64,000 bases of DNA from Escherichia coli (GTDB taxonomy: Bacteria > Pseudomonadota > Gammaproteobacteria > Enterobacterales > Enterobacteriaceae), in NCBI RefSeq assembly GCF_044324875.1, contig NZ_CP172185.1; one strand, given 5' to 3'. Positions 1,044 to 9,842 of this stretch are shown here, one piece after another. Position 1 is the stretch's first letter. Each line of letters starts with the position of its first letter. A model generated the notes under the pieces. The model did no database searches. It saw nothing but the letters and a program-made list of their open reading frames with translations, and had not been told where the DNA came from. Made by a program: the position numbers and the translations under genes.

Positions 1044-3052
<2,009 letters not shown>

Positions 3053-3060
3053 GAGAAAGT

Positions 3061-4281
3061 ATGACACCAGGCGGACAAGCTCAGATAGGTAATGTTGATC
3101 TCGTAAAACAGCTTAACAGCGCGGCGGTTTATCGCCTGATTGACCAGTATGGGCCAATCTCGCGGATTCAGATTGCCGAGCAAAGCCAGCTTGCCCCCGC
3201 CAGCGTAACCAAAATTACGCGTCAGCTTATCGAACGCGGGCTGATCAAAGAAGTTGATCAGCAGGCCTCCACCGGGGGCCGCCGCGCTATCTCTATCGTC
3301 ACCGAAACCCGCAATTTCCACGCAATCGGTGTACGGCTTGGTCGTCACGACGCCACCATTACTCTGTTCGATCTCAGTAGCAAAGTGCTGGCAGAAGAAC
3401 ATTACCCGCTGCCGGAACGTACCCAGCAGACGCTGGAACATGCCCTGCTGAATGCCATTGCTCAGTTTATTGATAGCTACCAGCGCAAGCTGCGCGAGCT
3501 GATTGCTATTTCCGTGATCCTGCCAGGGCTTGTTGACCCGGACAGCGGCAAAATTCATTACATGCCGCATATTCAGGTAGAAAACTGGGGGCTGGTAGAA
3601 GCACTGGAAGAGCGTTTTAAAGTGACCTGTTTTGTCGGCCACGATATCCGTAGTCTGGCGCTGGCAGAGCACTACTTCGGTGCAAGTCAGGATTGCGAAG
3701 ACTCCATTTTAGTGCGTGTCCATCGCGGGACCGGGGCAGGGATTATCTCTAACGGGCGCATTTTTATTGGCCGCAACGGTAACGTCGGTGAAATTGGCCA
3801 TATTCAGGTCGAACCGCTGGGTGAACGCTGCCACTGCGGCAACTTTGGCTGCCTGGAAACTATTGCTGCCAACGCTGCTATTGAACAACGGGTGTTGAAT
3901 CTGTTAAAGCAGGGCTACCAGAGCCGCGTGCCGCTGGACGACTGCACCATAAAAACTATCTGCAAAGCTGCGAACAAAGGCGATAGCCTGGCGTCGGAAG
4001 TGATTGAGTATGTGGGTCGTCATCTGGGCAAAACCATCGCCATTGCGATCAACTTATTTAATCCGCAAAAAATTGTTATTGCCGGTGAAATCACCGAAGC
4101 CGATAAAGTGCTGCTCCCTGCTATTGAAAGCTGCATTAATACCCAGGCGCTGAAGGCGTTTCGTACTAATCTGCCGGTGGTACGTTCTGAGCTGGATCAC
4201 CGCTCGGCAATCGGCGCTTTTGCGCTGGTAAAACGCGCCATGCTCAACGGTATTTTGCTCCAGCATTTGCTGGAAAATTAA
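3061..4281 (+). CDS. nagC: ROK-family transcriptional repressor of nag regulon
   Basis: 406-aa ORF with N-terminal HTH and ROK glucokinase-like domain (CHCGNFGCLE zinc motif); matches NagC. Confidence 0.97.
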   Translation: MTPGGQAQIGNVDLVKQLNSAAVYRLIDQYGPISRIQIAEQSQLAPASVTKITRQLIERGLIKEVDQQASTGGRRAISIVTETRNFHAIGVRLGRHDATITLFDLSSKVLAEEHYPLPERTQQTLEHALLNAIAQFIDSYQRKLRELIAISVILPGLVDPDSGKIHYMPHIQVENWGLVEALEERFKVTCFVGHDIRSLALAEHYFGASQDCEDSILVRVHRGTGAGIISNGRIFIGRNGNVGEIGHIQVEPLGERCHCGNFGCLETIAANAAIEQRVLNLLKQGYQSRVPLDDCTIKTICKAANKGDSLASEVIEYVGRHLGKTIAIAINLFNPQKIVIAGEITEADKVLLPAIESCINTQALKAFRTNLPVVRSELDHRSAIGAFALVKRAMLNGILLQHLLEN

Positions 4282-4328
4282 TGTGCTTTTATAGTGGCGC
4301 TTATTGTTGTCAATATTCTGGGTAGTCC

Positions 4329-5082
4329 ATGACCATTAAAAATGTAATTTGCGATATCGACGGCGTGCTGATGCACGATAACGTCGCCGTACCGGGTGCA
4401 GCGGAATTTTTGCACGGGATTATGGATAAAGGCCTGCCGCTGGTGTTGCTGACCAACTATCCTTCGCAGACCGGGCAAGATCTGGCGAACCGCTTTGCCA
4501 CTGCCGGTGTCGATGTACCTGACAGCGTGTTTTATACCTCTGCGATGGCGACCGCCGATTTCCTGCGTCGCCAGGAAGGCAAGAAAGCGTATGTGGTGGG
4601 CGAAGGCGCACTGATTCATGAACTGTACAAAGCCGGTTTCACTATTACCGATGTGAACCCTGATTTTGTGATTGTTGGCGAAACGCGTTCCTACAAACTG
4701 GGACATGATGCATAAAGCAGCCTATTTCGTCGCTAACGGTGCACGTTTTATCGCCACCAACCCGGACACCCACGGGCGCGGTTTTTATCCGGCGTGTGGT
4801 GCGCTGTGTGCGGGGATCGAAAAAATCTCCGGACGTAAACCGTTCTATGTTGGTAAGCCGAGTCCGTGGATCATCCGCGCAGCATTAAACAAAATGCAGG
4901 CGCATTCGGAAGAAACGGTGATTGTCGGCGATAACCTGCGTACCGATATTCTGGCGGGCTTCCAGGCCGGTCTGGAGACGATTCTGGTACTCTCCGGCGT
5001 TTCGTCGCTCGACGATATCGACAGTATGCCATTCCGCCCCAGCTGGATTTACCCATCGGTCGCCGAAATTGACGTTATCTGA
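4329..5082 (+). pseudogene. nagD: UMP phosphatase NagD/UmpH, interrupted by +1 frameshift (extra A in AAA run at 4696-4698)
   Basis: ORF track splits the gene into 4329..4715 and 4672..5082; total span 754 nt = 753+1; upstream frame reads ...VIVGETRSYKLGHDA* whereas intact NagD as I recall it reads ...VIVGETRSYNWDMMHKAAYF..., and the downstream frame continues NWDMMHKAAYFVANGARF... Confidence 0.85.
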
Positions 5083-5133: not shown

Positions 5134-6442
<1,309 letters not shown>

Positions 6443-6758: not shown

Positions 6759-8423
6759 ATGTGTTCAATTTTTGGCGTATTCGATATCAAAACAGACGCA
6801 GTTGAGCTGCGTAAGAAAGCACTCGAGCTGTCACGCCTGATGCGTCATCGTGGCCCGGACTGGTCCGGTATTTATGCCAGCGATAACGCCATTCTCGCCC
6901 ACGAACGTCTGTCCATTGTTGACGTTAACGCGGGGGCGCAACCTCTCTACAACCAACAAAAAACTCATGTGCTGGCAGTAAACGGTGAAATCTACAACCA
7001 CCAGGCATTGCGCGCTGAATATGGCGATCGTTACCAGTTCCAGACCGGGTCTGACTGTGAAGTGATCCTCGCGCTGTATCAGGAAAAAGGGCCGGAATTT
7101 CTCGACGACTTACAGGGCATGTTTGCCTTTGCCCTGTACGACAGCGAAAAAGATGCCTACCTGATTGGTCGCGACCATCTGGGGATCATCCCACTGTATA
7201 TGGGCTATGACGAACATGGTCAGCTGTATGTGGCCTCAGAAATGAAAGCCCTGGTGCCGGTATGCCGCACGATTAAAGAGTTCCCGGCGGGGAGCTATTT
7301 GTGGAGTCAGGACGGCGAAATCCGTTCTTATTATCATCGCGACTGGTTCGACTACGATGCGGTGAAAGATAACGTGACCGACAAAAACGAGCTGCGTCAG
7401 GCACTGGAAGATTCCGTTAAAAGCCATCTGATGTCTGATGTGCCTTACGGTGTGCTGCTATCTGGTGGCCTGGATTCCTCAATCATTTCCGCTATCACCA
7501 AGAAATACGCAGCCCGTCGCGTGGAAGATCAGGAACGCTCTGAAGCCTGGTGGCCGCAGCTGCACTCCTTTGCTGTAGGTCTGCCGGGTTCACCGGATCT
7601 GAAGGCAGCCCAGGAAGTGGCAAACCATCTGGGCACTGTGCATCATGAAATTCACTTCACTGTACAGGAAGGTCTGGACGCCATCCGCGACGTGATTTAC
7701 CACATCGAAACCTATGATGTGACCACTATTCGCGCTTCAACACCGATGTATTTAATGTCGCGTAAGATCAAGGCGATGGGCATTAAAATGGTGCTGTCCG
7801 GTGAAGGATCTGATGAAGTGTTTGGCGGTTATCTTTACTTCCACAAAGCGCCGAATGCCAAAGAACTGCATGAAGAGACGGTGCGTAAACTGCTGGCCCT
7901 GCATATGTATGACTGCGCCCGTGCCAACAAAGCGATGTCAGCCTGGGGCGTGGAAGCACGCGTTCCGTTCCTCGACAAAAAATTCCTCGACGTGGCGATG
8001 CGCATTAACCCACAGGATAAAATGTGCGGTAACGGCAAAATGGAAAAACACATCCTGCGTGAATGTTTTGAAGCGTATCTGCCTGCAAGCGTGGCCTGGC
8101 GGCAGAAAGAGCAGTTCTCCGATGGCGTCGGTTACAGTTGGATCGATACCCTGAAAGAAGTGGCGGCGCAGCAGGTTTCTGATCAACAGCTGGAAACTGC
8201 CCGCTTCCGCTTCCCGTACAACACACCGACCTCAAAAGAAGCGTATCTGTACCGGGAGATCTTTGAAGAACTCTTCCCGCTTCCGAGCGCCGCTGAGTGC
8301 GTGCCGGGCGGCCCGTCCGTCGCGTGTTCTTCCGCTAAAGCGATTGAGTGGGATGAGGCGTTCAAGAAAATGGACGATCCGTCTGGTCGTGCGGTTGGCG
8401 TTCACCAGTCGGCGTATAAGTAA
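6759..8423 (+). CDS. asnB: Asparagine synthetase B (glutamine-hydrolysing)
   Basis: ATG at 6759 after GGAGAAGG RBS; 554 aa MCSIFGVFDIKTDAVELRKKALELSRLMRHRGPDWSG...; the ORF-track start at 6678 is an in-frame upstream extension. Confidence 0.95.
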   Translation: MCSIFGVFDIKTDAVELRKKALELSRLMRHRGPDWSGIYASDNAILAHERLSIVDVNAGAQPLYNQQKTHVLAVNGEIYNHQALRAEYGDRYQFQTGSDCEVILALYQEKGPEFLDDLQGMFAFALYDSEKDAYLIGRDHLGIIPLYMGYDEHGQLYVASEMKALVPVCRTIKEFPAGSYLWSQDGEIRSYYHRDWFDYDAVKDNVTDKNELRQALEDSVKSHLMSDVPYGVLLSGGLDSSIISAITKKYAARRVEDQERSEAWWPQLHSFAVGLPGSPDLKAAQEVANHLGTVHHEIHFTVQEGLDAIRDVIYHIETYDVTTIRASTPMYLMSRKIKAMGIKMVLSGEGSDEVFGGYLYFHKAPNAKELHEETVRKLLALHMYDCARANKAMSAWGVEARVPFLDKKFLDVAMRINPQDKMCGNGKMEKHILRECFEAYLPASVAWRQKEQFSDGVGYSWIDTLKEVAAQQVSDQQLETARFRFPYNTPTSKEAYLYREIFEELFPLPSAAECVPGGPSVACSSAKAIEWDEAFKKMDDPSGRAVGVHQSAYK

Positions 8424-8435
8424 GAAATGCGGTAC

Positions 8436-8463
8436 TGCCCCGGAGAAATCCGGGGCTGTTTTA
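8436..8463. terminator. Bidirectional rho-independent terminator between asnB and convergent 145-aa ORF
   Basis: GCCCCGG-agaaat-CCGGGGC hairpin followed by TGTTTT. Confidence 0.6.
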
Positions 8464-8464
8464 G

Positions 8465-8902
8465 TTATTGAGCTGCTTGTTGATTCTGATATGCAGTAAG
8501 GAAATGTTCCGGGTTTGCCACATCACTGTTTGACAACTCATCACTGTAGGCCACCGACCAGGTCGCCTGCTCATCCGGAATATGCAGGCTGCCATTCCCC
8601 TCTTTCAGGCGTAATAACTCAAAAGATTTGCCCTTAATTACGGCGGTATAGGATTTTTCACCTTCCTGTAATGCTTTCACTTTACAGCGAAAAATATGGC
8701 CATCGATGTCATTATCAACATGCGATACCTGAATGAGGGCTTCATTAGAGGCTTTCGGCCCTATCCGCATCATCCACACCACAGCGCCTTCCTGCCCACG
8801 ATAGCCAAAAACATATTTACCGATTTCCGGTTTGACCGTATCGGCAAACGCAGATTGCATAAGTAATAACGCACCCATCAGCGCCGTCATAAAACGCAGC
8901 AT
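8465..8902 (-). CDS. Hypothetical secreted protein (145 aa, signal peptide, no family recognised)
   Basis: ORF with GAGGGA RBS 5 nt upstream of ATG; N-terminus MLRFMTALMGALLLMQSAFA-DTVK looks like a Sec signal peptide with AFA-D cleavage site; E. coli-like codon usage. Confidence 0.6.
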   Translation of the reverse strand: MLRFMTALMGALLLMQSAFADTVKPEIGKYVFGYRGQEGAVVWMMRIGPKASNEALIQVSHVDNDIDGHIFRCKVKALQEGEKSYTAVIKGKSFELLRLKEGNGSLHIPDEQATWSVAYSDELSNSDVANPEHFLTAYQNQQAAQ

Positions 8903-9165
8903 AGTATTCCCTCAATAAATCGCCTGAAGTGGTAGCAGAGATGCAGGCGTAGCGATCCCTGCCCTGTCCTGTTGCAACGGGCCAGTATTTCATAGATTAA
9001 TTTCCCACCACTATTGTTGAATTCCGAATTTCATCCTGTATGACAAAAGAATGGCTGTAGGGTGGGAAAAAAACACAAAGTAAACAATAATTGACGAATA
9101 TAGCGCCACGCTGTTCGCAACCTAACCAAACAGTCACTTTCGAGCAATTTTCCTTGAAAAAGAGG

Positions 9166-9200
9166 TTGACGCTGCAAGGCTCTATACGCATAATGCGCCC
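9166..9200 (+). promoter_or_regulatory. Sigma70 promoter of tRNA operon (TTGACG -35, 17-bp spacer, CATAAT -10, GC-rich discriminator)
   Basis: TTGACG at 9166-9171, CATAAT at 9189-9194, then GCGCCCCGC discriminator typical of stringently controlled stable-RNA promoters; about 40 bp upstream of first tRNA. Confidence 0.6.
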
Positions 9201-9235
9201 CGCAACGCCGATAAGGTATCGCGAAAAAAAAAGAT

Positions 9236-9312
9236 GGCTACGTAGCTCAGTTGGTTAGAGCACATCACTCATAATGATGGGGTCACAGGTTCGAATCCCG
9301 TCGTAGCCACCA
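9236..9312 (+). tRNA. metT: tRNA-Met (CAU, elongator)
   Basis: GGCTACGTAGCTCAGTTGGTTAGAGC...CTCATAA anticodon loop...GGTTCGAATCC...GCCACCA; cloverleaf with encoded CCA. Confidence 0.95.
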
Positions 9313-9321
9313 TCTTTTTTT

Positions 9322-9406
9322 GCGGGAGTGGCGAAATTGGTAGACGCACCAGATTTAGGTTCTGGCACCGCAAGGTGTGCGAGTTCAAGTCTCGCCTCCC
9401 GCACCA
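9322..9406 (+). tRNA. leuW: tRNA-Leu (UAG)
   Basis: GCGGGAGTGGCGAAATTGGTAGACGC...anticodon loop TTTAGGT...long variable arm...GCACCA. Confidence 0.93.
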
Positions 9407-9429
9407 TTCACCAGAAAGCGTTGTACGGA

Positions 9430-9504
9430 TGGGGTATCGCCAAGCGGTAAGGCACCGGTTTTTGATACCGGCATTCCCTGGTTCGAATCCAGGTACCCCA
9501 GCCA
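9430..9504 (+). tRNA. glnU: tRNA-Gln (UUG)
   Basis: TGGGGTATCGCCAAGCGGTAAGGCACCGGTTTTTGATACCGG...GGTTCGAATCC...CCCAGCCA; anticodon TTG. Confidence 0.93.
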
Positions 9505-9519
9505 TCGAAGAAACAATCT

Positions 9520-9596
9520 GGCTACGTAGCTCAGTTGGTTAGAGCACATCACTCATAATGATGGGGTCACAGGTTCGAATCCCGTCGTAGCCACCA
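9520..9596 (+). tRNA. metU: tRNA-Met (CAU, elongator), second copy
   Basis: Identical to 9236-9312. Confidence 0.95.
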
Positions 9597-9644
9597 AATT
9601 CTGAATGTGTCGAATGCGTTCGGCAAATTCACAAACCAATTTGT

Positions 9645-9719
9645 TGGGGTATCGCCAAGCGGTAAGGCACCGGATTCTGATTCCGGCATTCCGAGGTTCG
9701 AATCCTCGTACCCCAGCCA
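9645..9719 (+). tRNA. glnV: tRNA-Gln (CUG)
   Basis: TGGGGTATCGCCAAGCGGTAAGGCACCGGATTCTGATTCCGG...GGTTCGAATCC; anticodon CTG. Confidence 0.93.
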
Positions 9720-9723
9720 CATT

Positions 9724-9750
9724 AAAAAAGCTCGCTTCGGCGAGCTTTTT
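9724..9750 (+). terminator. Rho-independent terminator of tRNA operon
   Basis: AAAAAGCTCGC-ttcg-GCGAGCTTTTT hairpin with U tract. Confidence 0.8.
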
Positions 9751-9765
9751 GCTTTTCTGCGTATA

Positions 9766-9842
9766 TTCAATGTCGAATGCGATGTTGACTCGTCTTATCC
9801 TTCAAAGTCGGATGCGACGCTGACGCGTCTTATCCGACCTAC
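9766..9842. repeat. Two tandem degenerate REP-like units (BIME-like) between tRNA terminator and ubiF 3' end
   Basis: Unit A TGTCGAATGCGATGTTGACTCGTCTTATCC and unit B GTCGGATGCGACGCTGACGCGTCTTATCCGACCTAC share the REP core GATGCGACGCTG..CGTCTTATC. Confidence 0.5.

Follow-up and report, generated by a model that had tools for sequence, protein, structure and literature searches.

A gene for a predicted exported barrel protein between asnB and a tRNA operon is ancestral in Escherichia and deleted in K-12 and most complete E. coli genomes

Here, we present an analysis of the region between asnB and the neighbouring tRNA operon in a genome of Escherichia coli (assembly GCF_044324875.1), based on a stretch of 64,000 nucleotides of contig NZ_CP172185.1 (the window). 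In the window, asnB ends at position 8423 and the first tRNA gene, for tRNA-Met, starts at 9236, giving a spacer of 812 bp. The asnB-metT spacer of K-12 measures only 379 bp and contains no annotated feature in either RefSeq record. An earlier note, made from the letters of the window without database searches, had given 812 bp here and a gene-free spacer of about 380 bp for K-12, and our measurements agree with both. The spacer contains the following features:

8437..8456, no strand: G+C-rich hairpin with an 8-bp stem (seven G-C pairs) and a 4-nt loop (terminator scan, folding)
8465..8902, minus strand: protein-coding gene of 145 codons plus stop (ORF list, RefSeq annotation in other strains, homologues, dN/dS)
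8465..8548, minus strand: 3' end of the ORF, YSDELSNSDVANPEHFLTAYQNQQAAQ plus stop, 27 codons, 84 nt (unannotated remnant in K-12)
8549..8979, no strand: 431-bp segment that K-12 and most E. coli lack (aligned against K-12, O157-type and CFT073-type genomes)
8549..8553, no strand: left copy of the GGCCA direct repeat (junction alignment)
8980..8984, no strand: right copy of the GGCCA direct repeat (junction alignment)
8843..8902, minus strand: predicted Sec-type signal peptide MLRFMTALMGALLLMQSAFA, codons 1-20 (sequence rules, hydrophobicity, conservation)
8908..8913, minus strand: Shine-Dalgarno sequence GAGGGA, 5 nt before the ATG (read from the sequence)
8903..9235, no strand: divergent intergenic region between the ORF and the tRNA operon (promoter scan, tRNA genes)
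9166..9194, plus strand: promoter-like site of the tRNA operon, TTGACG, 17 nt, CATAAT (promoter scan)

The hairpin is flanked by the stop codons of the two convergent genes, asnB (8423) and the ORF (8465), and its folding energy is −19.6 kcal/mol on the plus strand and −17.9 kcal/mol on the minus strand (z-scores of −2.9 and −3.8, respectively). The terminator scan flags it on the plus strand only, as a canonical intrinsic terminator for asnB, while the hairpin on the ORF strand is without a good U-run. Thus, the suggestion that the two genes share a bidirectional terminator is correct in its geometry, i.e., one hairpin between convergent genes; however, the canonical U-run is present only on the asnB side. 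The promoter scan of the region upstream of the ORF found no consensus sigma-70 site; a possible extended −10 element, TGAAATACT, was seen by eye ~85 nt upstream of the ORF and was given no weight. Rfam returned nothing above threshold over 8300..9800 except the five tRNAs, which ARAGORN orders from 9236 as Met(CAU), Leu(UAG), Gln(UUG), Met(CAU) and Gln(CUG).

Three observations concern the neighbours of the spacer. The tRNA operon (9236..9719) has five genes in the window versus seven in K-12, ST131, Pseudocitrobacter and a Salmonella-labelled assembly; presumably, one copy of each duplicated Gln gene was lost by recombination between tandem copies. In E. coli CEA224S (NZ_CP166080.1; L016, locus 1625..2156), as assembled, the whole tRNA operon is missing between asnB and ubiF, the cut falls exactly at the first base of metT, and the metT part of the query was not seen to match the CEA224S record a second time. 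Because we take the K-12 operon at this site to comprise the elongator tRNA-Met genes and all tRNA-Gln genes, this gap likely represents an assembly error or a relocation. Finally, the nagD-asnB spacer of the window contains an IS621 element (5353..6333, plus strand) encoding a 326-aa IS110-family RNA-guided transposase (NCBIfam NF033542, E 6e-76); in other strains, the element at the same site is annotated in RefSeq as "IS110-like element IS621 family transposase".

The minus-strand ORF for a 145-aa protein and its strong ribosome-binding site GAGGGA are present exactly as the earlier note quoted them. The ORF is a real gene rather than a chance reading frame. The same ORF is annotated as a hypothetical protein in RefSeq for other strains (WP_000943490.1 and WP_000943484.1), homologues that are 56-98% identical to the 145-aa protein occur in several genera, and the ORF is conserved in related genomes with a clear coding signal (dN/dS 0.06-0.15). 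These ratios were calculated by the Nei-Gojobori method on codon alignments of pairs with dS up to 0.8. Specifically, dN/dS is 0.07 between the window and ST131 (14 synonymous and 4 non-synonymous differences), 0.09 between the window and a divergent E. coli allele, 0.08 between the window and the Salmonella-labelled allele, and 0.15 between the latter two alleles. In the comparison with Pseudocitrobacter, the synonymous sites are saturated, and the protein is still 70% identical. We conclude that the gene is under strong purifying selection where present.

Consistently with the signal peptide proposed in the earlier note, the N terminus of the 145-aa protein has a standard layout, in which M-L-R is followed by the core FMTALMGALLLMQ and then by A-F-A|D. 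As criteria for Sec export, we used an N-terminal positive residue, a hydrophobic core of 10-15 residues, small residues at −3/−1 (AxA) and the lack of a lipobox cysteine. The core comprises 13 hydrophobic residues (mean Kyte-Doolittle value 1.75), signal peptidase I is predicted to cut after AFA (AFA|DT), and the protein has no lipobox. By these rules, the protein would be exported by the Sec pathway and cleaved by signal peptidase I. QSAFA|(D/E) is kept in the enterobacterial homologues, and the signal layout is present in all close and most distant homologues. From the rules together with this conservation, we infer that the 145-aa protein is Sec-exported and that the mature protein (computed as 125 aa, 13.9 kDa, pI 5.5, one Cys) is located in the periplasm.

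The 431-bp segment that is absent from K-12 contains codons 1-117 of the ORF, the ribosome-binding site and 77 bp upstream of the start codon. The alignment of K-12 with the window runs from asnB across the terminator into the ORF, of which it covers the last 84 nt, and then jumps to window position 8980. GGCCA is present in two copies in the window and in one copy in K-12 and the other deleted genomes, and because of this repeat, the boundaries of the deletion can slide by 5 bp. Except for this 5-bp repeat, there are no mobile-element ends around the segment. Such a pattern, with a segment of 431 bp flanked by GGCCA and a single GGCCA in K-12, marks a deletion that arose between short direct repeats. 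By contrast, an insertion would not leave 84 nt of coding sequence in K-12, and we therefore reject a gain. Altogether, the ORF is ancestral at the asnB-metT position and was lost by the 431-bp deletion in K-12 and ~82% of complete E. coli genomes. The earlier note had described the difference as a gain of ~430 bp; the size is right (exactly 431 bp), but the direction is the opposite, since K-12 keeps a remnant of the ORF and outgroups share the gene.

Using megablast, we searched for the 431-bp segment in 5426 complete E. coli genomes. K-12 and most E. coli are without the ORF: the segment is present in 985 of the genomes, in one copy each and always on the chromosome, and all 985 matches cover at least 80% of it. 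The remaining genomes match the flanks only (59% coverage of the spacer query); the segment is absent from K-12, DH10B, O157:H7, O104:H4 and CFT073. Among the copies, 414 are at least 99% identical to the window, among them the copies of CE10 (phylogroup F) and of many isolates from poultry and humans, while 567 are 95-99% identical, and the sampled rows of this group represent a single 97.2% allele that includes JJ1887 and O25b:H4-ST131 strains. Four genomes have an allele with 80-90% identity. As a clean presence/absence marker, the gene tells ST131 apart from B2 strains of the CFT073 type, and the CE10 type (phylogroup F) apart from K-12, O157 and O104:H4.

The deletion junction, ACTGTA-GGCCA-GTATTTC, is identical on two flank haplotypes (L001, L013, L014 and L015). 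The K-12/O157-type and CFT073-type flanks differ by 6-7% over 326 bp, and ST131 has CFT073-type flanks with the gene intact. The haplotype-specific SNPs closest to the junction are at a distance of only 24 nt to one side and of ~135 nt to the other. Based on these alignments, we suggest either that the deletion occurred at least two times on the 5-bp repeat or that a conversion tract of less than ~160 nt was involved. Two further observations were made in the genome collection. The ORF of E. coli OkiPb01715 (L012, locus 1410..1847) has 65 differences to the window over 438 nt (~85% identity; dS 0.71) and 26 differences to the Salmonella-labelled allele (~94%; dS 0.20), while asnB of this strain is 96.6% identical to asnB in the window; judged from these distances, the allele looks like a replacement by recombination from outside the species. 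Moreover, one plasmid record in the E. coli genome collection matches the asnB-metT spacer query.

The gene order miaB-ubiF-tRNAs-ORF-asnB-nagD-nagC is common to four other taxa. In Pseudocitrobacter cyperus, the ORF is located between the tRNAs and asnB and its product has 70% protein identity; an assembly labelled Salmonella enterica has the same gene order, with an asnB that is 88% identical to that of the window; and in E. albertii as well as E. marmotae, the gene is in the same tRNA-ORF-asnB position. Close homologues are also on record from E. ruysiae and further Escherichia species. In other genera, unrelated housekeeping spacers contain the gene (one between amiC and mltA, close to a tRNA-Met gene; one between genes for a TonB-dependent receptor and PTS EIIC/EIIB), and no conserved partner gene is found across seven loci of different taxa and three further listed places. 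The first of these spacers is on an enterobacterial metagenome contig (L007), in which ~800 bp separate a 56%-identical homologue (4001..4447), flanked by amiC and mltA, from a tRNA-Met gene (5237..5313). The presence of a tRNA-Met locus beside the gene in two chromosomal contexts may be a coincidence.

The earlier note recognised no family in the mature sequence, and this is confirmed by Pfam, NCBIfam and PADLOC, all of which came back empty. In Pfam, the 145-aa protein has no match even at E ≤ 10, and 18 homologues scanned singly have none either; NCBIfam gave no match for the 145-aa protein; and PADLOC, which covers anti-phage defence, gave none at E ≤ 1 for this protein and two distant homologues. 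Sequence-profile searches of the PDB with profiles of 18 and 60 sequences returned only chance matches (E ≥ 0.2), and a literature search on the locus and the accession numbers found no paper. In contrast, a family profile built from 18 homologues and searched against 1.84 billion cluster representatives matched 214 representatives at E ≤ 1e-3, of which 115 also passed E ≤ 1e-10. Thus, the gene is an orphan in that its family has no name, but not in the sense of being without relatives. The family extends to Proteobacteria, Bacteroidota, Myxococcus and even fungi, and its cluster members are all named "hypothetical protein". Similarly, nearly all neighbours in AFDB50 are "uncharacterized"; they come from Atlantibacter, Pantoea, Yersinia, Brenneria, Xanthomonas, Pseudomonas, Duganella and Rhizobium and, further away, from Pedobacter, Spirosoma, Cytophaga, Myxococcus and a yeast. 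Two labels found on relatives were examined. DUF4367 (PF14285), the UniRef name of the Pseudocitrobacter homologue, has no match at E ≤ 0.1 to P0027 and 17 other homologues, and Ivy (PF08816), the label on one AFDB neighbour, has no Pfam match and an hhalign probability of 0.3% against E. coli Ivy. The protein family is uncharacterised and without a curated model.

Among 143 representatives that we examined, 95 are stand-alone proteins of 120-175 aa. A hydrophobic N-terminal stretch is present in 86 of the 94 stand-alone representatives that start with Met, and a lipobox in none of the 94. Over 60 diverse members, the motifs R-P-E-x-G-x-Y, Y-x-G-x-E-G, R-x-G-P, E-x-L-x-Q, G-I-D-H-x-W-D, L-Y-L-P and P-E-H-F-L-T-x-Y-L-x-Q are conserved, and R46, G48, D63 and L135 are at least 90% conserved. 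The family consensus reads RPEvGkY..Y.G.EG..V...R.GP....EALvQ..GIDH.WD..I.K......Y.....G.....L.....G.LYLP......Y...LS....PEHFLT.YL.Q. The 145-aa protein is the first row of the profile, and its full-length profile match and the shared conserved positions fit the family.

The AlphaFold2 model was the same whether 18 sequences (pLDDT 87.7) or 60 sequences (pLDDT 94.0, pTM 0.82) were supplied. The predicted strands are at 27-36, 41-47, 54-60, 70-77, 83-89, 92-100, 103-107 and 114-119, and the model further has the signal helix, a short helix (121-124) and, at the C terminus, a helix formed by residues 131-144. Accordingly, the fold is predicted with high confidence as an eight-stranded antiparallel beta-barrel with a C-terminal helix. 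This barrel fold is a common one. A Foldseek search of the PDB returned nothing at E ≤ 0.001, and PliC scored a TM of about 0.4, equal to avidins, fHbp and designed barrels; hence, the fold class is clear, but none of the solved structures is specifically related. Those that come nearest in fold are binder barrels without enzymatic activity or accessory barrel domains, and the Pfam and NCBIfam scans matched no catalytic family. The 145-aa protein is probably not an enzyme. Because the barrel is small (~90 residues), an internal lipocalin-type cavity is unlikely, and binding would go through the loops; we consider a central ligand cavity in this family doubtful.

In a few representatives, the domain is fused to signalling domains. 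Pfam scans revealed Guanylate_cyc, a membrane segment and then the family domain in P0079 (JGI name: class 3 adenylate cyclase); TIR_2, a membrane segment and then the family domain in P0128; and Response_reg followed by the family domain in P0109, a fungal-looking protein of 744 aa. In P0178, the family domain is followed by HTH_18/HTH_AraC; this protein has no signal peptide, would be cytoplasmic and is present on several contigs of up to 162 kb. The partner in such fusions that is neither catalytic nor DNA-binding is normally the input module. Because the family domain is the non-catalytic partner, we prefer to read the barrel as a binding or sensing domain. However, the signalling fusions are rare, i.e., single clusters among the 143 representatives examined, and about ten representatives carry a Cys-rich C-terminal domain instead. 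For these reasons, the fusions support the binding or sensing function only modestly and could be exceptions, and a binding or sensor function of the barrel is our guess from the domain arrangements.

Based on these data, we propose the following model. An ancestral, vertically inherited Escherichia gene would be transcribed alone and convergently with asnB. Its product would leave the cytoplasm by the Sec pathway and, once cut after AFA, would be free in the periplasm, with a mass of ~14 kDa. The mature protein would fold as a compact eight-stranded barrel closed by the conserved C-terminal helix (PEHFLTxYLxQ), and the barrel would recognise a ligand or a protein via the conserved loops (G-x-EG, GIDHxWD and LYLP). 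In K-12 and ~82% of complete E. coli genomes, the gene was destroyed by the GGCCA-repeat deletion, which left the last 27 codons. As the best overall explanation, an ancestral gene for a periplasmic binding or sensing module that is deleted in K-12 is one that we regard as reasonably probable; this judgement blends two parts, of which the gene and its deletion are close to certain, while the binding-module function is tentative and has somewhat less than an even chance of being correct. More speculatively, the E. coli protein could represent an undescribed input or binding beta-barrel domain with two uses in bacteria, on its own as a binder in the periplasm and joined to AraC-type regulators, class III cyclases and TIR proteins, for which it would do the sensing; in fungi, it would partner receiver proteins. 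We regard this generalization as conceivable but rather unlikely.

Alternatively, the protein could be a periplasmic proteinaceous inhibitor of lysozyme or a peptidoglycan hydrolase, with loops that plug the active site as in PliC/MliC, PhiA and ACP. MliC/PliC proteins are defined by the motifs SxSGAxY (loop 4) and YxxxTKG (strand 6), and conserved cysteines are marked in their structure-based alignment (PMC5507604). Neisseria ACP, for which a disulphide has been reported, inhibits lysozyme from the same fold without these motifs (PMC5507604), and a PliC-like mode is possible on this account. However, SxSGAxY and YxxxTKG are present in none of 190 family proteins. The 145-aa protein has a relaxed Y-x4-K-G at residues 85-91 (strand 5 and the following turn), in which K90 is not conserved in the family, and with its single Cys it cannot form the disulphide reported for ACP. 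Membership in MliC/PliC (PF09864) was rejected based on the lack of a Pfam match at E ≤ 10, the lack of the motifs and the failure of hhalign, in which the 60-sequence family profile aligned with E. coli MliC over the signal peptide only (probability 8%). Likewise, nothing was aligned with Ivy, and the Foldseek TM of about 0.4, without a PDB match at E ≤ 0.001, does not favour PliC. Moreover, the domain is also found in cytoplasmic proteins, i.e., the AraC fusion and the fungal receiver protein, in which inhibition of a lysozyme would make no sense. Altogether, we consider this explanation improbable and prefer a binding or sensing module.

A second possibility is that the gene is an orphan immunity gene against a toxin that acts in the periplasm (an effector of the type VI or contact-dependent kind), kept by some lineages for protection against competitors. 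One distant homologue is located near an Imm11 gene, which keeps this reading alive at a low probability. However, there is no adjoining toxin gene in about ten loci inspected; the conserved housekeeping context and the vertical inheritance across genera are unlike polymorphic-toxin loci; the strong purifying selection and the low protein divergence are atypical for immunity proteins; and the fusions to regulators do not fit. We therefore consider immunity very unlikely.

According to a third explanation, the ORF is a decaying or non-functional leftover that is poorly or not translated and is disappearing from all E. coli. The loss of the gene from 82% of the genomes, the identical deletion on two very different flank haplotypes, which may have arisen more than once, the absence of a promoter recognised by the scan and the lack of a phenotype on record would all be compatible with decay. 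Yet every one of the 985 copies covers at least 80% of the segment, the 145-codon ORF is intact in all six of the carriers with annotation that were examined (the window included), dN/dS is low also within E. coli, and the ribosome-binding site is strong and the signal peptide conserved; a leftover is hardly credible in view of these data. Because most E. coli are without the gene, its role is dispensable. Lastly, the gain of a foreign gene on a ~430-bp segment by the lineage of this strain has a negligible probability, since the lower G+C content of the ORF (46.6% versus 52.7% in asnB; GC3 47% versus 59%), which in light of the synteny we read as the gene's own property rather than recent import, the frequent use of tRNA loci as integration sites and the exchange suggested by the very divergent OkiPb01715 allele are outweighed by the 84 nt of the ORF kept in place in K-12, the same position of the gene in other Escherichia species and other genera, a divergence of the ORF between lineages that follows that of asnB, and flanks without mobile-element ends, in which there is only a 5-bp repeat that is present once in the deleted form.

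With the ancestral gene and its deletion as the preferred reading, K-12 represents the derived state at this locus, and its asnB-metT spacer holds an unannotated gene remnant. Nearly a thousand complete genomes already list the gene itself under the name hypothetical protein; it is an ordinary accessory gene, and our analysis does not overturn current understanding. Worth keeping are the gene remnant of K-12, the identical junction that recurs, and a family that has sensor-like fusions and could be curated. A sizeable family that has no Pfam or NCBIfam model is a reasonable target for curation and for a simple biochemical screen, because the barrel fold is confidently predicted and there are a few sensor-like fusions. 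If the more speculative reading as an input or binding domain used across bacteria and fungi is correct, the retention of the gene in some extra-intestinal lineages (ST131 and the phylogroup-F CE10 type) would indicate selection on niche-limited periplasmic sensing or protection, in contrast to the repeated loss of exactly the same 431 bp in other lineages.

Compared with known systems, the family has only a generic barrel likeness to MliC/PliC (Salmonella PliC, 3OE3; Brucella PliC, 4MIR; E. coli MliC/YdhA, 2F09) and no sequence relationship to them; it adds the conserved C-terminal helix and a conserved N-terminal RPE-x-G-K-Y segment, and Foldseek ranks PliC no higher than generic barrels. 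Brucella PhiA (7DPY) and Neisseria ACP (5MY7/6GQ4) are peptidoglycan hydrolase inhibitors of the barrel type that are likewise without the MliC/PliC motifs; however, the family has no detectable sequence similarity to them, the sole PDB profile match to ACP being in the signal peptide region (E 0.38), and no hydrolase partner is encoded nearby. Calycin-like barrels, i.e., avidins/streptavidins and bacterial lipocalin-like proteins, are longer than the barrel of this family and have no sequence similarity to it, and the same lack of sequence similarity applies to the accessory barrel domains of D-aminopeptidase/PBP-like proteins (1EI5, 2QMI, 5HAL and 4WHI). As in one-component regulators and membrane-bound cyclases, the family domain sits at the position of the input module in P0178, P0079 and P0128. 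Unlike the input domains of such regulators and cyclases, the E. coli protein and most representatives carry no output domain and are stand-alone proteins predicted to be exported.
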